In this document: piece after piece, positions 423-35,466 of the stretch | Numbering within the stretch: position 1 is the stretch's first letter | Layout: every line of letters starts with the position of its first letter | Assembly: GCF_003018235.1 (NCBI RefSeq) | Contig: NZ_CP027437.1 | Length of the DNA stretch: 64,000 bases | Source of the DNA: Escherichia coli | GTDB taxonomy: Bacteria; Pseudomonadota; Gammaproteobacteria; Enterobacterales; Enterobacteriaceae | Strand: one strand, 5' to 3' | Notes under the pieces: model-generated | What the model saw: only the letters and a program-made list of their open reading frames with translations | Database searches by the model: none | What the model was told of the DNA's origin: nothing | Program-made: the position numbers and the translations under genes

Positions 423-1841
423 ATGCATGTACAGCCCATTTCAACTTTCCGTTTGTTCCAGGAAGGTCATCTGCTACGTAATAGCATCGCTATTTTTGCG
501 CTAACCACGCTGTTCTATTTTATTGGTGCAGAGTTACGGCTGGTTCACGAACTTTCTCTTTTCTGGCCGCTGAATGGCGTAATGGCGGGGGTGTTTGCCC
601 GCTATGTCTGGCTTAATCGACTGCATTACTATGCGATCAGTTATGTGGCAATGCTGGTTTATGATGCCATAACCACCGAATGGGGGCTGGTTTCACTGGC
701 TATCAATTTCTCCAATATGATGTTTATTGTTACCGTCGCCTTACTGGTCGCGCGGGATAAGCGTCTGGGGAAAAATAAGTACGAGCCAGTAAGTGCCTTA
801 CGGCTATTTAATTACTGTCTGATTGCCGCATTATTATGCGCTATTGTCGGGGCGATTGGTTCGGTCAGTATTGATAGTCTGGATTTCTGGCCTTTGCTTG
901 CCGACTGGTTCAGTGAGCAATTCTCAACGGGCGTGTTGATAGTGCCTTGTATGCTGACGTTGGCAATTCCTGGAGTGCTGCCGCGCTTTAAAGCAGAACA
1001 GATGATGCCCGCTATCGCGCTTATTGTGTCGGTTATTGCCTCGGTAGTCATTGGCGGAGCGGGGAGTCTGGCGTTCCCGCTGCCTGCATTAATCTGGTGT
1101 GCAGTGCGCTATACGCCGCAGGTAACATGTCTGTTGACCTTTGTCACCGGTGCGGTGGAAATCGTACTGGTGGCAAATTCGGTGATTGATATCTCGGTCG
1201 GTTCGCCATTCTCCATTCCAGAAATGTTCTCCGCACGTCTCGGTATTGCCACGATGGCGATATGCCCAATTATGGTTTCTTTTAGCGTGGCAGCGATCAA
1301 TTCGCTAATGAAGCAAGTTGCGCTGCGAGCCGACTTTGATTTTCTGACTCAGGTTTACTCACGGTCCGGTCTTTATGAGGCGCTGAAAAGTCCATCGCTG
1401 AAACAGACACAACATCTGACTGTCATGCTGCTTGATATCGACTATTTCAAAAGTATTAACGATAACTATGGACATGAATGTGGCGATAAAGTGTTAAGCG
1501 TGTTTGCAAGGCATATTCAGAAGATTGTCGGTGATAAGGGGCTGGTGGCACGAATGGGCGGCGAAGAATTTGCTGTTGCAGTGCCATCGGTGAATCCTGT
1601 CGATGGTCTGCTAATGGCGGAAAAAATCCGTAAAGGCGTTGAACTGCAACCGTTCACCTGGCAACAAAAAACGCTTTATCTCACGGTAAGTATTGGCGTC
1701 GGTAGTGGTCGCGCATCGTACCGAACGCTGACCGATGACTTTAATAAATTGATGGTCGAAGCCGATACGTGTCTGTATCGCTCGAAGAAAGATGGGCGCA
1801 ACCGTACCAGCACTATGTGTTACGGTGAGGAAGTTGTCTGA
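423..1841 (+). CDS. dgcF: Membrane-anchored diguanylate cyclase (GGDEF domain, GGEEF motif)
   Basis: 472-aa ORF; N-terminal multi-TM region then GGDEF domain with RMGGEEF. Start codon uncertain. Confidence 0.85.
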   Translation: MHVQPISTFRLFQEGHLLRNSIAIFALTTLFYFIGAELRLVHELSLFWPLNGVMAGVFARYVWLNRLHYYAISYVAMLVYDAITTEWGLVSLAINFSNMMFIVTVALLVARDKRLGKNKYEPVSALRLFNYCLIAALLCAIVGAIGSVSIDSLDFWPLLADWFSEQFSTGVLIVPCMLTLAIPGVLPRFKAEQMMPAIALIVSVIASVVIGGAGSLAFPLPALIWCAVRYTPQVTCLLTFVTGAVEIVLVANSVIDISVGSPFSIPEMFSARLGIATMAICPIMVSFSVAAINSLMKQVALRADFDFLTQVYSRSGLYEALKSPSLKQTQHLTVMLLDIDYFKSINDNYGHECGDKVLSVFARHIQKIVGDKGLVARMGGEEFAVAVPSVNPVDGLLMAEKIRKGVELQPFTWQQKTLYLTVSIGVGSGRASYRTLTDDFNKLMVEADTCLYRSKKDGRNRTSTMCYGEEVV

Positions 1842-2067
1842 CATCTTTATTCATTCAGAGCGATTTAAATGCAATGTGTTCTACCACTTTATGATCCAAG
1901 AAAAGGCGTTTTTCCTCGATTAAACCATGATCCGCGCCACACTTTTCTCATAAAACTGCTCATTAATCATCAGGAGTTGATCAAAACAGGGGTTCGGCGT
2001 ATTAAAGTTTGCTAACCTGTCGTACCAATTCAAACAGGTTGTATGACTAATCAGAAGGGAACCCATT

Positions 2068-3519
2068 GTGAAAACACTAAATCGTCGCGATTTTCCCGGT
2101 GCACAGTATCCAGAACGTATCATTCAGTTTGGTGAAGGTAACTTCCTGCGCGCCTTTGTTGACTGGCAAATCGATCTCCTGAATGAGCACACCGATCTGA
2201 ATTCTGGCGTGGTCGTTGTTCGTCCGATTGAAACTTCATTCCCGCCGTCACTGAGCACGCAGGATGGTCTGTATACCACCATTATCCGTGGCCTGAATGA
2301 GAAGGGTGAAGCGGTCAGCGACGCGCGTCTGATTCGCTCGGTTAATCGTGAAATCAGCGTCTACAGTGAATACGATGAATTCCTGAAACTGGCGCATAAC
2401 CCGGAAATGCGCTTTGTTTTCTCTAACACCACCGAAGCGGGTATCAGCTACCATGCGGGCGATAAATTCGATGACGCGCCAGCGGTAAGTTATCCGGCAA
2501 AACTGACCCGTCTGCTGTTCGAACGTTTTAGCCATTTCAACGGTGCGCTGGATAAAGGTTGGATCATCATCCCGTGTGAGTTGATCGACTACAATGGCGA
2601 CGCGTTGCGTGAACTTGTGCTGCGCTATGCGCAAGAGTGGGCACTACCAGAAGCATTTATTCAATGGCTGGATCAGGCTAACAGCTTCTGTTCTACGCTG
2701 GTGGACCGTATCGTTACCGGCTATCCGCGTGATGAAGTGGCTAAACTGGAAGAAGAACTGGGTTATCACGATGGTTTCCTCGACACCGCTGAACACTTTT
2801 ACCTGTTTGTGATTCAGGGGCCGAAATCCTTAGCGACTGAGCTGTGCCTGGACAAATATCCACTCAACGTGCTGATTGTTGACGATATTAAACCGTACAA
2901 AGAACGCAAAGTGGCAATCCTCAACGGTGCGCACACCGCGCTGGTGCCGGTGGCGTTCCAGGCAGGGCTGGATACCGTAGGTGAAGCGATGAACGATGCT
3001 GAAATTTGCGCATTCGTTGAAAAAGCCATCTACGAAGAAATTATTCCGGTACTGGATTTGCCTCGTGATGAACTGGAATCTTTCGCCAGTGCAGTCACCG
3101 GACGTTTCCGTAACCCGTACATCAAACATCAGTTGCTATCTATCGCCCTCAACGGTATGACCAAGTTCCGCACCCGCATCCTGCCGCAACTGCTGGCAGG
3201 GCAGAAGGCAAACGGCACACTTCCGGCGCGCCTGACTTTCGCATTAGCGGCATTGATTGCGTTTTATCGCGGTGAGCGTAATGGAGAAACATATCCGGTA
3301 CAGGACGATGCACACTGGCTGGAACGTTATCAGCAACTCTGGAGCCAGCATCGTGACCGTGTTATCGGTACCCAGGAACTGGTAGCGATTGTGTTGGCAG
3401 AAAAAGACCACTGGGAGCAGGACCTGACGCAAGTGCCTGGTCTGGTCGAGCAGGTGGCTAATGACCTGGATGTGATTCTCGAAAAAGGAATGCGCGAAGC
3501 TGTACGTCCGTTGTGCTAA
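2068..3519 (+). CDS. uxaB: Altronate oxidoreductase (tagaturonate reductase)
   Basis: 483-aa ORF matching UxaB throughout ([30 protein letters not shown]...); GTG start with AAGGGA SD upstream. Confidence 0.95.
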
Positions 3520-26880: not shown

Positions 26881-29532
26881 ATGACAGCCTTTCGTGCCGC
26901 ATTTAAGGCATATCGTATGCATCAGGTGTTACTACTGCCTCGCTTTGCACGGCTTACCATTGCCCTTGGCTTAGCAACTGCGGTATTTCCCGTTGACGCA
27001 GAGTATTATTTTAATCCACGGTTTTTAAGCAATGATCTTGCTGAATCTGTCGATTTATCCGCCTTTACTAAGGGACGCGAGGCACCATCTGGTACATATC
27101 GGGTCGACATTTATTTGAACGACGAATTTATGACTAGTCGGGATATTACTTTTATTGCAGATGATAATAACGCAGATCTCATCCCATGCCTGAGTACAGA
27201 TCTTCTTGTCAGTCTTGGCATAAAAAAATCAGCGTTATTAGACAATAAAGAACATTTGGCAGAAAAACATGTGCCGGACAACAGCGCATGCACACCACTT
27301 CAGGATCGTTTGGCCGACGCATCAACTGAGTTTGATGTTGGTCAGCAACATTTGTCACTCTCCGTTCCGCAAATTTATGTTGGCAGAATGGCTCGCGGCT
27401 ATGTTTCTCCTGATCTGTGGGAAGAAGGAATAAATGCTGGGCTTCTAAACTATAGTTTTAATGGTAATTCTATTAATAATCGTAGTAACCATAATGCAGG
27501 AAAATCCAACTATGCATATTTGAATTTACAGAGTGGCATCAACATTGGTAGTTGGCGACTGCGCGATAACTCAACGTGGAGTTATAACAGTGGGAGTAGC
27601 AATTCATCTGACAGCAATAAATGGCAGCACATCAATACGTCGGCTGAACGTGACATTATTCCCTTACGCTCACGCTTAACGGTAGGTGATAGTTATACCG
27701 ATGGCGATATTTTTGATAGTGTGAACTTTCGTGGCCTCAAAATAAATTCAACAGAAGCGATGTTGCCCGATAGCCAACATGGTTTCGCTCCGGTGATTCA
27801 TGGTATTGCCCGCGGCACCGCACAAGTGAGTGTAAAACAGAATGGATACGATGTTTATCAGACTACTGTCCCACCCGGCCCTTTTACTATTGATGATATC
27901 AACTCTGCGGCCAATGGTGGTGATCTGCAAGTAACCATAAAAGAGGCAGACGGCAGTATTCAGACATTATATGTTCCTTATTCGTCTGTTCCGGTTCTCC
28001 AACGTGCTGGATATACGCGTTATGCGCTTGCCATGGGGGAATATCGTAGTGGAAATAACCTGCAAAGCTCCCCCAAGTTCATACAAGGTAGCTTGATGCA
28101 TGGACTGGAAGGAAACTGGACACCTTATGGCGGAATGCAAATTGCAGAAGATTATCAAGCCTTCAACCTTGGTATTGGTAAAGATTTAGGACTTTTTGGT
28201 GCCTTTTCTTTCGATATCACGCAGGCCAATACGACACTTGCAGATGGCACCCGTCACAGCGGGCAATCGATTAAATCCGTCTACAGCAAATCCTTCTACC
28301 AGACGGGAACCAATATCCAGGTCGCAGGATATCGCTATTCTACGCAAGGTTTTTATAACTTATCCGACAGTGCCTACAGTCGAATGAGTGGTTACACCGT
28401 CAAGCCTCCTACCGGAGACAGCAATGAGCAGACACAATTTATTGATTATTTTAATCTGTTCTACAGTAAGCGTGGTCAGGAACAAATAAGCATCTCTCAG
28501 CAGCTTGGAAATTACGGTACGACATTTTTCAGTGCCAGTCGCCAAAGTTACTGGAACACGTCACGCAGCGACCAGCAAATATCATTTGGATTAAATGTGC
28601 CGTTTGGTGATATTACGACTTCGCTGAATTACAGCTATTCCAATAATATATGGCAAAACGATCGGGATCATTTACTTGCTTTTACGCTTAATGTTCCCTT
28701 CAGTCATTGGATGCGTACAGACAGTCAGTCGGCATTTCGTAATTCAAACGCCAGTTACAGTATGTCAAACGATTTGAAAGGCGGCATGACCAATCTATCG
28801 GGGGTTTATGGCACTCTGCTGCCGGATAATAACCTGAATTATAGCGTTCAGGTCGGTAACACCCACGGGGGTAATACATCGTCTGCCACCAGTGGTTACA
28901 GTTCTCTTAATTATCGTGGAGCTTACGGTAATACTAATGTCGGTTACAGTCGGAGTGGTGACAGCAGCCAAATTTATTACGGAATGAGTGGTGGGATTAT
29001 TGCTCATGCTGATGGCATCACCTTTGGTCAGCCGCTGGGCGACACAATGGTTCTGGTTAAGGCTCCTGGCGCTGATAATGTCAAAATAGAGAACCAGACC
29101 GGAATTCATACCGACTGGCGTGGCTATGCCATATTACCATTTGCGACAGAATATAGAGAAAATCGTGTCGCTCTTAACGCGAATTCCCTTGCAGATAATG
29201 TTGAACTGGATGAAACCGTTGTCACTGTCATCCCAACTCACGGTGCTATTGCCAGAGCAACATTTAATGCACAAATCGGCGGGAAAGTATTAATGACGTT
29301 GAAGTACGGTAATAAGAGCGTTCCATTCGGTGCAATTGTCATACATGGTGAGAATAAAAATGGCAGCATTGTCGCGGAAAACGGTCAGGTTTATCTGACT
29401 GGACTTCCACAGTCAGGGAAATTACAGGTTTCATGGGGCAAAGATAAAAACTCAAACTGTATTGTCGAGTACAAGCTTCCTGAAGTTTCTCCTGGTACCT
29501 TACTGAACCAGCAGACAGCAATCTGTCGCTAA
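26881..29532 (+). CDS. ydeT: Fimbrial outer-membrane usher
   Basis: 883-aa full-length usher ORF with signal peptide. Confidence 0.9.
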   Translation: MTAFRAAFKAYRMHQVLLLPRFARLTIALGLATAVFPVDAEYYFNPRFLSNDLAESVDLSAFTKGREAPSGTYRVDIYLNDEFMTSRDITFIADDNNADLIPCLSTDLLVSLGIKKSALLDNKEHLAEKHVPDNSACTPLQDRLADASTEFDVGQQHLSLSVPQIYVGRMARGYVSPDLWEEGINAGLLNYSFNGNSINNRSNHNAGKSNYAYLNLQSGINIGSWRLRDNSTWSYNSGSSNSSDSNKWQHINTSAERDIIPLRSRLTVGDSYTDGDIFDSVNFRGLKINSTEAMLPDSQHGFAPVIHGIARGTAQVSVKQNGYDVYQTTVPPGPFTIDDINSAANGGDLQVTIKEADGSIQTLYVPYSSVPVLQRAGYTRYALAMGEYRSGNNLQSSPKFIQGSLMHGLEGNWTPYGGMQIAEDYQAFNLGIGKDLGLFGAFSFDITQANTTLADGTRHSGQSIKSVYSKSFYQTGTNIQVAGYRYSTQGFYNLSDSAYSRMSGYTVKPPTGDSNEQTQFIDYFNLFYSKRGQEQISISQQLGNYGTTFFSASRQSYWNTSRSDQQISFGLNVPFGDITTSLNYSYSNNIWQNDRDHLLAFTLNVPFSHWMRTDSQSAFRNSNASYSMSNDLKGGMTNLSGVYGTLLPDNNLNYSVQVGNTHGGNTSSATSGYSSLNYRGAYGNTNVGYSRSGDSSQIYYGMSGGIIAHADGITFGQPLGDTMVLVKAPGADNVKIENQTGIHTDWRGYAILPFATEYRENRVALNANSLADNVELDETVVTVIPTHGAIARATFNAQIGGKVLMTLKYGNKSVPFGAIVIHGENKNGSIVAENGQVYLTGLPQSGKLQVSWGKDKNSNCIVEYKLPEVSPGTLLNQQTAICR

Positions 29533-30652: not shown

Positions 30653-31567
30653 ATGGGTAAAACATTCAGTATAAAGGTTCTGTTCAGTATTTATCTTCTA
30701 TTAATGGCAGGCAAAGTTTTTGCCTTCAGTTGTAATGTCGATGGCGGGTCAAGTATTGGAGCAGGTACAACCTCTGTTTATGTTAATCTCGATCCTGTAA
30801 TACAACCGGGCCAGAATCTGGTTGTAGACTTGTCTCAGCATATAAGTTGCTGGAATGATTACGGCGGCTGGTACGACACTGATCATATAAACCTGGTACA
30901 AGGCTCAGCTTTCGCAGGCTCTCTACAGTCATATAAAGGATCGCTGTACTGGAATAATGTGACCTACCCCTTCCCGTTGACGACAAATACTAATGTATTA
31001 GATATTGGTGATAAGACACCGATGCCATTACCGTTAAAACTCTATATTACCCCAGTCGGTGCGGCCGGTGGAGTTGTCATAAAAGCCGGGGAAGTTATTG
31101 CCCGTATTCATATGTATAAAATTGCCACGTTAGGAAGCGGAAATCCGCGTAATTTTACGTGGAATATTATTTCAAATAACAGTGTTGTTATGCCAACAGG
31201 CGGCTGCACCGTTGATAGTCGTAATGTCAACGTGAATCTCCCGGACTTTCCTGGAAGCGCAGAAATACCCCTTGGCGTATATTGCTCAAGTGAACAAAAG
31301 CTCTCATTTTATCTTTCGGGTGCTACCACTGACAGTGCCAGACAAGTGTTTGCTAACACAGCACCAGATGCAACAAAAGCATCGGGAGTGGGTGTCTCTC
31401 TGATGCGTAATGGAAAAATACTGGCTACGGGAGAAAATGTTTCCCTCGGAACAGTAAATAAGAGCAAAGTACCTCTGGGTTTAAGCGCAACCTATGGACA
31501 AACAGGAAACAAGGTTGCAGCCGGAACAGTTCAGTCAGTCATTGGTGTCACTTTTATCTATGAATAA
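30653..31567 (+). CDS. ydeQ: FimH-like two-domain fimbrial tip adhesin
   Basis: 304-aa ORF; signal peptide, N-terminal lectin-like and C-terminal pilin-like domains; last gene of the operon. Confidence 0.85.
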
Positions 31568-31639
31568 TTGTGATTTTGACATTAGTCTATGCGTTCCATT
31601 CACGAAAATTGTGCGGATAATTATTTTGTGAAGGCTATT

Positions 31640-31657
31640 ATCCTACACTTGTAAGAA
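31640..31657. promoter_or_regulatory. Putative EvgA box upstream of ydeP
   Basis: ATCCTACA-CT-TGTAAGAA, 17/18 match to my recollection of the published EvgA box, TTCYTACA-NN-TGTARGAA; ydeP is a known EvgA target. Confidence 0.5.
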
Positions 31658-31905
31658 AATCCGCGCACAATTGAAGCCAGAGTCTTATTTTTTATATTGA
31701 AAAACATGTTAATTTAAACACTATGAGAGATGATGCTTAACTTATCGTATTTATACCATTCTATTATTTAACAATAATAGATTAAAAATAGAAAGAGAGT
31801 AGTCCCCTACTCTTATATATCCAGGTTGATGATAAACCTATTATATATACTGTGCATCATCGCTATTACAAATCCTAATAATTCATTTCCACACAGGATA
31901 AGCAG

Positions 31906-34185
31906 ATGAAGAAAAAAATTGAATCCTACCAGGGAGCTGCCGGTGGTTGGGGTGCTGTTAAATCCGTAGCAAATGCAGTACGTAAGCAGATGGATATACG
32001 CCAGGATGTTATTGCCATGTTTGACATGAATAAGCCAGAGGGCTTTGACTGTCCGGGATGTGCATGGCCAGATCCTAAGCACAGTGCGTCATTCGACATT
32101 TGTGAAAACGGCGCAAAAGCAATCGCCTGGGAAGTCACGGATAAGCAGGTAAATGCCTCTTTCTTTGCTGAGAATACGGTTCAATCATTACTTACCTGGG
32201 GAGATCACGAGCTTGAGGCTGCGGGGCGTCTCACTCAGCCTTTGAAATATGATGCCGTCAGCGACTGTTACAAGCCATTAAGCTGGCAACAAGCTTTCGA
32301 CGAAATAGGCGCACGCCTTCAAAGCTATAGTGATCCCAATCAGGTTGAATTCTATACTTCGGGCCGCACTTCCAATGAAGCTGCCTTTCTTTATCAGCTT
32401 TTTGCCCGTGAATACGGGAGCAATAACTTTCCCGACTGTTCCAACATGTGCCATGAACCGACCAGTGTGGGTTTGGCAGCGAGTATCGGTGTAGGTAAAG
32501 GGACCGTGTTGCTGGAAGACTTTGAGAAATGCGATTTAGTCATTTGCATTGGGCATAACCCTGGTACAAACCACCCTCGCATGTTGACTTCGTTGCGCGC
32601 TTTAGTGAAACGGGGAGCGAAAATGATCGCCATCAATCCTCTACAGGAACGTGGCCTGGAGCGATTTACCGCACCGCAAAACCCGTTTGAAATGCTGACG
32701 AACTCTGAGACTCAGTTGGCCAGTGCCTACTACAACGTGCGCATTGGTGGTGATATGGCGTTGCTCAAGGGGATGATGCGCCTGTTAATTGAGCGCGATG
32801 ATGCTGCAAGCGCCGCAGGTCGGCCCTCATTGCTGGATGACGAATTTATTCAAACGCATACCGTCGGCTTTGACGAGCTACGCCGTGACGTTCTCAATTC
32901 CGAGTGGAAAGATATCGAGCGTATTTCTGGACTAAGTCAGACTCAAATCGCCGAACTGGCTGATGCATATGCCGCTGCCGAACGCACCATTATCTGTTAC
33001 GGAATGGGGATCACTCAGCACGAACATGGTACCCAGAATGTACAGCAACTGGTCAATCTGCTGTTGATGAAAGGTAACATTGGCAAGCCTGGTGCGGGTA
33101 TCTGCCCACTACGAGGTCACTCTAATGTACAGGGCGACCGAACCGTCGGTATCACCGAGAAACCGTCTGCAGAGTTTCTGGCTCGCCTGGGTGAGCGCTA
33201 TGGTTTCACCCCACCTCATGCACCTGGACATGCTGCAATTGCCAGCATGCAAGCAATATGTACGGGGCAGGCTCGAGCATTGATCTGCATGGGGGGCAAC
33301 TTTGCACTGGCAATGCCAGATCGGGAAGCGAGCGCTGTACCGTTAACGCAATTAGACCTGGCGGTACACGTTGCCACTAAGCTTAACCGCTCTCATCTGC
33401 TGACCGCACAGCATAGCTATATTCTGCCGGTTCTTGGGCGTAGCGAGATTGACATGCAAAAAAGCGGTGCGCAGGCGGTAACCGTTGAGGATTCAATGTC
33501 GATGATTCATGCCTCGCGTGGCGTGTTAAAACCCGCCGGTGTAATGCTGAAATCAGAGTGTGCAGTGGTCGCGGGAATCGCGCAGGCAGCACTACCCCAG
33601 AGCGTGGTAGCCTGGGAGTATCTGGTGGAAGATTATGATCGCATTCGCAATGACATTGAAGCTGTGCTGCCAGAGTTCGCCGACTATAACCAGCGCATCC
33701 GTCATCCTGGAGGTTTTCACCTGATAAACGCAGCTGCTGAAAGGCGCTGGAGGACGTCGTCAGGTAAGGCTAATTTCATTACCAGTAAAGGGCTGTTAGA
33801 AGATCCCTCTTCAGCGTTTAACAGTAAGCTAGTCATGGCGACAGTACGCAGTCACGATCAGTACAACACGACGATTTATGGTATGGATGATCGCTATCGA
33901 GGGGTATTCGGTCAACGAGATGTGGTCTTTATGAGTGCTAAACAAGCTAAAATTTGCCGTGTAAAAAACGGCGAAAGAGTTAATCTTATTGCGCTTACGC
34001 CAGACGGTAAGCGAAGCTCACGCCGCATGGATAGATTAAAAGTGGTCATTTACCCTATGGCTGACCGCTCACTGGTGACCTATTTTCCAGAATCGAATCA
34101 CATGCTAACACTTGATAACCACGATCCATTAAGTGGCATTCCTGGCTATAAAAGTATTCCGGTTGAATTAGAACCATCAAATTAA
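31906..34185 (+). CDS. ydeP: Molybdopterin oxidoreductase (formate-dehydrogenase-like), acid-resistance associated
   Basis: 759-aa ORF ([25 protein letters not shown]...). Confidence 0.95.
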
Positions 34186-34198
34186 TTCGCCTCCTCAT

Positions 34199-34233
34199 TT
34201 CTTCTGCTGTCATCCGCACAGCAGAAGAATTCC
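34199..34233. terminator. Strong stem-loop downstream of ydeP (putative terminator)
   Basis: TTCTTCTGCTG-(9 nt)-CAGCAGAAGAA, perfect 11-bp stem 14 nt after the ydeP stop; weak T-tract. Confidence 0.5.
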
Positions 34234-34303: not shown

Positions 34304-34321
34304 CGCCTACAGCTGTAAGAA
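34304..34321. promoter_or_regulatory. Putative EvgA box upstream of safA-ydeO
   Basis: CGCCTACA-GC-TGTAAGAA, same CCTACA-NN-TGTAAGAA core as the ydeP site; safA-ydeO is a known EvgA target. Confidence 0.5.
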
Positions 34322-34432
34322 ACTCCGCTCAGTACCGAAGCGCCAGTCCTATTTCCTCTATTCTCCAGCCTGTTATATTAAGCATACTGATTAACGATGC
34401 TTAACGTCATTCATTTAATAAACACATTTGAA

Positions 34433-34630
34433 ATGCATGCGACCATAGTGAAAAACAAAATCACGCAAAGAGACAACTATAAAGAAATCATGTCTGTAAT
34501 TGTGGTTGTCTTATTACTGACCCTTACGTTGATAGCCATTTTTTCGGCAATTGATCAGCTGGGTATTTCAGAAATGGGTCGCATTGCAAGGGATCTTACA
34601 CATTTCATTATCAATAGTTTGCAAGACTGA
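34433..34630 (+). CDS. safA: Small membrane connector protein (EvgSA to PhoQP)
   Basis: 65 aa from ATG 34433 (MHATIVKNKITQRDNYKEIMSVIVVVLLLTLTLIAIF...), single TM segment. Confidence 0.85.
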   Translation: MHATIVKNKITQRDNYKEIMSVIVVVLLLTLTLIAIFSAIDQLGISEMGRIARDLTHFIINSLQD

Positions 34631-34704: not shown

Positions 34705-35466
34705 ATGTCGCTCGTTTGTTCTGTTATATTTATTCATCATGCCTTCAACGCTAACATTTTAGATAAAGATTACGCCTTCTCTGACGGCGAGATCCTGATG
34801 GTAGATAACGCTGTTCGTACGCATTTTGAACCTTATGAGCGGCATTTCAAAGAAATCGGATTTAATGAAAATACCATTAAAAAATATCTACAATGCACTA
34901 ACATCCAGACAGTGACGGTGCCTGTTCCTGCGAAGTTTTTACGTGCTTCAAATGTACCGACTGGATTGCTTAATGAAATGATTGCTTATCTCAACTCGGA
35001 AGAACGCAATCATCATAATTTTTCAGAACTTTTGCTTTTTTCTTGCCTGTCTATTTTTGCCACATGCAAAGGTTTCATTACACTATTAACTAACGGTGTG
35101 CTATCCGTTTCCGGGAAAGTGAGAAATATTGTCAACATGAAGCTGGCGCACCCATGGAAGCTGAAAGATATTTGTGACTGCCTGTACATCAGTGAAAGCC
35201 TGCTCAAGAAAAAACTAAAGCAAGAGCAAACGACATTCTCACAGATTCTTTTAGATGCCAGAATGCAGCACGCAAAAAATTTGATACGCGTAGAAGGTTC
35301 AGTTAATAAAATTGCCGAACAATGTGGTTATGCCAGTACATCTTATTTTATTTATGCGTTCCGCAAACATTTCGGCAACAGTCCGAAGAGAGTTTCTAAG
35401 GAGTACCGTTGTCAAAGGCACACGGGAATAAATACGGGCAACACGATGAATGCTTTAGCTATTTGA
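34705..35466 (+). CDS. ydeO: AraC-family acid-resistance regulator
   Basis: 253-aa ORF with C-terminal AraC HTH (...YASTSYFIYAFRKHFGNSPKR). Confidence 0.9.
   Translation: MSLVCSVIFIHHAFNANILDKDYAFSDGEILMVDNAVRTHFEPYERHFKEIGFNENTIKKYLQCTNIQTVTVPVPAKFLRASNVPTGLLNEMIAYLNSEERNHHNFSELLLFSCLSIFATCKGFITLLTNGVLSVSGKVRNIVNMKLAHPWKLKDICDCLYISESLLKKKLKQEQTTFSQILLDARMQHAKNLIRVEGSVNKIAEQCGYASTSYFIYAFRKHFGNSPKRVSKEYRCQRHTGINTGNTMNALAI

Follow-up and report, generated by a model that had tools for sequence, protein, structure and literature searches.

The EvgA box of Escherichia coli is said to have been defined by Masuda and Church in 2003 as an 18-bp inverted repeat, TTCPyTACA-N2-TGTAPuGAA (TTCYTACA-NN-TGTARGAA), and EvgA footprints were reportedly published by Itou et al. 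in 2009. Of the promoters of E. coli, that of ydeP is among those that acid induces most strongly, and it is widely used as an EvgS/EvgA reporter. In Bordetella, promoters activated by BvgA, the orthologue of EvgA, have a high-affinity inverted-repeat primary site far upstream and weaker sites that are filled cooperatively toward the -35 region. Inverted repeats around such sites may suggest cruciforms, the extrusion of which in vivo needs long, near-perfect arms and a short AT-rich centre.

Here, we compare the ydeP and safA-ydeO promoters with these systems in a stretch of 64,000 nucleotides (‘the window’) from a strain of E. coli that does not belong to K-12. The intergenic region between ydeQ and ydeP is 100% identical to that of strain MEI003 and only 94.4% identical to that of an MG1655 derivative. 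The original prediction for this region was that EvgA-box-like sites with an identical core lie upstream of ydeP and safA, and that the ydeP site is bracketed by an imperfect inverted repeat that could form a cruciform or bind a second factor. The features discussed below are collected in Table 1.

Table 1. Genes, EvgA boxes, repeat arms and promoter elements of the ydeQ-ydeO region, with positions numbered from the first nucleotide of the window
Feature	Position	Strand	Description
ydeQ	30653-31567		ORF and annotation of matching E. coli records
Left arm of flanking repeat	31607-31618		AATTGTGCGGAT; ydeP-unique DNA, outside the shared promoter module
Extended imperfect hairpin	31610-31667	+	9-bp outer stem and 4+3+3 nested inner pairs; EvgA box in the right half
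EvgA box, ydeP promoter	31640-31657	+	ATCCTACACTTGTAAGAA; palindromic 8-2-8; 1 mismatch to TTCYTACANNTGTARGAA
ydeP copy of the 113-bp module	31642-31754	+	Box, spacer, putative extended -10 and first ~30 transcribed bases
Right arm of flanking repeat	31659-31672		ATCCGCGCACAATT; in the stretch of the common module that separates the box from the -35 region, at a predicted -64 to -51 or so
Putative extended -10 of ydeP	31707-31715	+	TGtTAATTT; invariant in all alleles; aligned with the safA motif
ydeP CDS	31906-34185	+	759 aa; ORF and annotation of matching records
EvgA box, safA-ydeO promoter	34304-34321	+	CGCCTACAGCTGTAAGAA; 2 mismatches to the consensus
safA copy of the 113-bp module	34306-34418	+	
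Putative extended -10 of safA-ydeO	34371-34379	+	TGtTATATT; by homology with ydeP
safA CDS	34433-34630	+	65 aa; ORF and K-12 locus annotation
ydeO	34705-35466		Next gene after safA; ORF and K-12 locus annotation

EvgA boxes of ydeP and safA-ydeO

The two predicted sites are present at the positions in Table 1, and both have CCTACA-NN-TGTAAGAA in common. Matches were scored against the consensus TTCYTACA-NN-TGTARGAA, from which the ydeP and safA sites depart by 1 and 2 mismatches, respectively. The only two occurrences of the core CCTACANNTGTAAGAA in the 64 kb of the window are at 31642-31657 and 34306-34321, each with 0 mismatches, and shuffled sequence yields 0.34 matches with up to 2 mismatches permitted. 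The ydeP box lies 249 bp and the safA box 112 bp upstream of the respective ATG. A scan with the same consensus over 20 kb around evgAS of MG1655 returned four sites (0.28 expected), located before emrK/evgA, frc and yfdX.

The identification of both sites as EvgA boxes is borne out by the genes that follow them, since ydeP is under direct EvgA regulation (PMC7174508, PMC8174306) and the safA-ydeO promoter is bound directly by EvgA (PMC9496106). In the ten E. coli alleles compared, the core CCTACA..TGTAAGAA is invariant wherever the box is intact, with variation confined to box position 2 and the 2-nt spacer. The ydeP and safA sites therefore resemble the described EvgA box in consensus fit, in target genes and in having a core that is invariant among strains, and the boxes themselves show no difference from it. 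They are real and already known, and our analysis adds nothing new to them as EvgA sites. We propose that each 18-bp palindrome would be the primary site for a dimer of phosphorylated EvgA, a response regulator of the NarL/FixJ type, and that, when the pH is mildly acidic, EvgA bound there would switch on the two sigma-70 promoters, that of ydeP and that of safA-ydeO.

One strain carries an interrupted box. In E. coli JML285 (locus L084, NZ_AP024114.1), an IS100 element (IS21 family, istA/istB) occupies positions 1150-3260 and splits the EvgA box of ydeP at its centre. It is bordered by a 5-bp target duplication, CCTGT, equivalent to window positions 31647-31651, and holds the half-sites ~2 kb apart. 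Control of ydeP by EvgA has probably been lost naturally through this insertion.

A promoter module common to ydeP and safA

The identity of the two boxes extends well beyond the binding site. An ungapped alignment of the two promoters at an offset of +2664, beginning at CCTACA of the box, has 75 of 113 positions identical (66%), vs 28.3 +/- 4.75 for random pairs (z about 9.8). With the box left out, 61 of 97 positions are still identical (about 24 expected), and upstream of the box the identity drops to 15-25% in 20-nt windows. Both promoters contain the motif TGTTAWWTT at 50 bp from the box, and the alignment reaches to about +32. In nine further strains, the two module copies agree at 68-75 of 113 positions, and the spacing from the box to the TG of the motif is constant in all 10 strains.

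In likeness over 113 bp without gaps and in having one and the same distance from box to -10, ydeP and safA behave as paralogous promoters within a regulon. The cores of their boxes are identical because the promoters are paralogous copies of one module of ~113 bp, which would comprise the box, a 50-bp spacer, an extended -10 element of the form TGTTAWWTT and about 30 transcribed bases. We did not find this paralogy described in the accessible literature; the primary papers may show it. It is the more useful outcome of the analysis, flagging positions between the box and the -10 element that are worth mutating.

The module also helps to place the transcription starts. In a study of CsrA, the ydeP leader was taken from -178 relative to the ATG (PMC11210196). 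Through the alignment, this end maps to about position 31723, which is 7-8 nt past the putative -10 element, and we infer that ydeP transcription starts there. The centre of the ydeP box would then be near -74.5 and the left arm of the flanking repeat at about -116 to -105. By homology, safA-ydeO transcription would start at about 34386, and the shared spacing of the module would consequently put the box near -74.5 in both promoters. An alternative ydeP promoter, TTGAAG-16-TATATT (31671-31698), was considered and rejected: it lacks conservation in safA, and strain CUVET19 has an altered -35 element, whereas TGTTAWWTT is invariant and fits the -178 leader.

With this predicted geometry, the ydeP and safA promoters are like the BvgA-activated promoters of Bordetella in having a distal palindromic primary site, and the stretch from the box to the -35 region is conserved. 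They differ from them in that a weight matrix detects no secondary EvgA half-sites between the box and the -35 region.

Other EvgA promoters resemble the module to a lesser degree or resemble one another. The emrK promoter retains only traces of it, e.g. AGTCC at the same offset as in ydeP and safA. The frc and yfdX promoters of MG1655 (locus L095, minus strand, 15390-15534 and 16385-16528) have a downstream element in common, CAAAATG..CG...CTCTCTGATT, at equal distance from their EvgA boxes, which suggests that frc and yfdX are a second pair of paralogous EvgA promoters.

In both leaders, GATGCTTAAC is found about 10 nt past the predicted start (window positions 31730-31740 for ydeP and 34396-34404 for safA). 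In the ydeP leader, a short upstream ORF (MMLNLSYLYHSII* in the window strain) starts from this sequence, and in K-12 the frame of the ORF is altered by a 5-nt indel. In safA, it provides an in-frame ATG 12 codons before the annotated start and hence a 77-aa ORF at 34397-34630; the K-12 copy reads GATGCTTTTC. Within the intergenic region, variation is greatest in the 5' leader of ydeP (window positions 31753-31757 and 31794/31795): a 5-nt indel (ATACC) separates groups of alleles, and OkiPb01691 carries a GC-rich insertion of 23 bp.

Comparison with other genera bears on how ydeP came under EvgA control. A protein search with YdeP returned clusters of E. coli and Shigella and then Edwardsiella, at 85-87% amino-acid identity, the latter being the nearest homologues named for another genus; P0001, at 93% identity, is an E. 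coli allele of the ST131 type that is extended at the C-terminus. The matches kept from a search of contigs with the YdeP N-terminus were distant homologues (Providencia at 74% and below), with no Escherichia among them. In Edwardsiella, the locus consists of moa genes, a Bax1-I family gene, ydeP and nrd genes, and no EvgA-box-like sequence was found in the 141-bp region upstream of ydeP. Taken together, the two module copies in E. coli and the box-less ydeP of Edwardsiella suggest that ydeP may have been recruited to the EvgA regulon by acquiring a copy of the promoter module, a scenario read from sequence comparison.

The inverted repeat flanking the ydeP box

The imperfect inverted repeat that was predicted around the ydeP site is real as sequence but interrupted. 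The reverse complement of the left arm, ATCCGCACAATT, aligns with the right arm, ATCCGC-GC-ACAATT, which makes 12 pairs with a 2-nt bulge (GC, in the right arm), and an inverted-repeat search resolves the same arms into a pair of 9-nt registers that overlap (I3, 100%; I7, 89%). The arms are 40 bp apart. The left arm ends 21 nt before the box and the right arm begins 1 nt after it, and because these gaps are unequal, the dyad of the repeat (31639.5) is displaced by 9 bp from that of the box (31648.5).

To express how unusual such an arrangement is, we used a bracket score: the 60 nt upstream of an 18-bp site are aligned locally with the reverse complement of the 60 nt that lie downstream, and the best alignment gives the score. 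For the ydeP site it is 18, a value that is equalled or bettered at 3.2% of 9,115 random window positions and, when the local AT-rich flanks are shuffled, in 7.3% of 3,000 trials, i.e. only marginally beyond chance. No bracketing repeat is present at the five other EvgA boxes examined, which score 10-14 (safA 10-13, emrK/evgA 11, frc 14, yfdX 12 and 11) against a background median of 12. The repeat is no part of the EvgA box as described and, among the boxes examined, occurs at ydeP only.

The two arms have different surroundings. The right arm agrees with safA at 8 of its 14 positions, including TCCGC directly past the box, whereas the left arm lies in DNA to which nothing at safA corresponds. 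In the 10 alleles compared, the right arm is invariant, as its place in the core promoter module would explain. We consider it likely that the flanking repeat is incidental: it would be a by-product without a function of its own, the left arm being ordinary upstream DNA that happens to be complementary by chance. Against this reading count the retention of the repeat in nine other alleles, the continued pairing expected for both natural left-arm variants, and the unusual stability of the K-12 hairpin described in the next section (z -4.9).

Two further origins of the arms were tried and dropped. A weight matrix built from 12 half-sites gave no match in or near the arms, which are thus not additional half-sites for EvgA. 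Almost every genome has a single copy of each arm region (median 1 place, highest 2), so that the arms do not belong to a repeat family or mobile element.

The conservation of the repeat was followed with a 40-mer around the centre of each arm, counted over the roughly 5,300 E. coli genomes that carry the locus. The right arm is intact in 5,109 of them. The common form of the left arm, AATTGCGCGGAT, with C at 31612, is found in 4,820 genomes (91%), the window form, with T at 31612, in 85 (1.6%), and a form with A31607G, in which the outermost pair is lost, in 179. A further 137 genomes have A31620T, 2 bp outside an otherwise intact arm, which makes at least three alleles inside the left arm and one variant next to it. 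The common allele has a perfect 9-bp repeat, TGCGCGGAT/ATCCGCGCA, and the T of the window shifts the register.

Absence of the repeat from other strains would have spoken against the original prediction, and this was not what we observed: an equal-score repeat is kept in all nine of the other alleles with an intact box, though not in the left-arm form of the window, which is rare. The C/T difference at 31612 amounts to a shifted register in DNA or a G-U pair in RNA, and A31607G likewise leaves a G-U, so that pairing would persist. No change involving both arms was seen among the E. coli alleles compared. Polymorphic columns make up about 11% of the stretch from the ydeQ stop codon to the box, which contains the left arm, and about 10% of the rest of the promoter; the repeat is conserved no more than neighbouring promoter DNA, and its conservation is therefore no argument for function.

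One alternative is that the arms are half-sites of a second DNA-binding protein, which would loop or clamp the EvgA site and so modulate activation. The arm centres are about 53 bp apart, which corresponds to five helical turns, so that both face the same side of the helix; the arms stand out as GC-rich stretches from AT-rich surroundings and persist across alleles; and they have a loose likeness to AATTGTGAGC, a half-site of the LacI type. Yet a loop of 53 bp would be unusually small, neither the paralogous safA promoter nor the other EvgA promoters examined have the repeat, its chance level is marginal, and the A31607G genomes do without the outermost pair. Published work points the same way: the ydeP promoter is reportedly free of complex co-regulation through other members of the AR2 network (PMC7174508), and according to EcoCyc, EvgA is the only regulator common to ydeP and emrKY (PMC8174306). 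We find no support for a second factor and hold it to be quite improbable.

A second alternative is cruciform extrusion of the repeat in negatively supercoiled DNA, by which access of EvgA to the box would be altered. The repeat is an imperfect palindrome, and the single-stranded DNA of 31600-31680 folds at -10.4 kcal/mol, but the corresponding z is only -1.94, 11 of 200 shuffles being as stable. Like the inverted repeats known from cruciforms and operators, it has two complementary GC-rich arms; it differs from them in its 2-nt bulge, its 40-bp gap, its off-centre position with respect to the activator site and its failure to recur. The inner pairing, between the arms, is short, interrupted and partly dependent on G-U pairs, which DNA does not support. 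A cruciform is implausible, with a probability that we would put close to nil. The suggestion that the repeat acts as a cruciform or as a second-factor site is accordingly one that we do not uphold, given a structure that is bulged, off-centre, statistically marginal and absent at five other EvgA boxes. If the incidental reading were wrong and the repeat were functional, it would constitute a second layer of control on a strongly acid-induced E. coli promoter.

The left arm and its surroundings (window positions 31607-31627, AATTGTGCGGATAATT) loosely resemble, with two bases missing, AATTGTGAGCGGATAACAATT, the lac operator. The resemblance is probably a coincidence. Resemblances to operators of LacI, CRP, ArgR and RcsAB were dropped as too weak.

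Hairpins downstream of ydeQ and elsewhere in the window

With the repeat as its outer stem and inner pairs that involve the box, the region can form the extended imperfect hairpin listed in Table 1. As RNA, a 75-nt segment containing it folds at -19.1 kcal/mol (z -3.3) in the window allele, -25.8 kcal/mol (z -4.9) in the K-12 type allele, -19.2 kcal/mol (z -2.7) in LR-58-2 and -20.7 kcal/mol (z -3.8) in CUVET19. Among GC-matched 75-nt windows of the 64-kb region, a fold like that of the window allele belongs to the 3% tail and one like that of the K-12 allele to the 0.08-0.18% tail, values that are to be read with the fact that the boundaries of the segment were picked after the structure had been seen. 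In a context of 133 nt, z is -0.77 for the window allele and -2.3 for K-12, and a z of about -3 is likewise attained by the best windows around the boxes of emrK and frc. A search of Rfam with the whole window gave no match at the gathering threshold, and 31400-32000 gave none at E <= 1.

These folds raise a third alternative, in which the repeat and the inner pairs form an RNA hairpin at the 3' end of read-through transcripts of the ydeT-S-R-Q fimbrial genes, stabilizing or ending them and shielding ydeP, with the overlap of the EvgA box being incidental. The stem begins 40 nt past the ydeQ stop codon, a terminator scan finds no other plus-strand terminator between ydeQ and ydeP, a U-rich run follows downstream (31685-31698), the RNA folds are stable in four alleles, and both natural variants of the left arm are compatible with wobble pairing. 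However, the U run begins 13-17 nt past the stem, so that this is no canonical intrinsic terminator, and the terminator scan makes no call here. Two wobble-compatible transitions have a chance of about 0.25, the fold of the window allele weakens in the 133-nt context, the post hoc boundaries apply to every 75-nt value, and Rfam has no match. An RNA hairpin finds no support in this balance of evidence, and we regard it as unlikely. That the 58-nt nested hairpin (31610-31667) is a structured 3' end or insulator for the fimbrial operon, or else supercoiling-sensitive DNA that gates access of EvgA to ydeP, is equally a doubtful proposition.

The usher gene ydeT is intact in the window (26881-29532, 883 aa), and K-12 ydeT is an N-terminally truncated pseudogene.

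At 34199-34229, 14 nt past the ydeP stop codon, there is a perfect 11-bp hairpin (TTCTTCTGCTG / CAGCAGAAGAA) with a 9-nt loop, flanked by CCTCATT direct repeats and without a T run; the safA EvgA box follows 75 bp downstream. This hairpin may be the ydeP terminator. The strongest hairpin of the window, AAAAGGCCGCTGCG...CGCAGCGGCCTTTTT at 20163-20199 (-41 kcal/mol in a 75-nt window), lies past an ORF at 18674-20053 and looks like an ordinary bidirectional intrinsic terminator.
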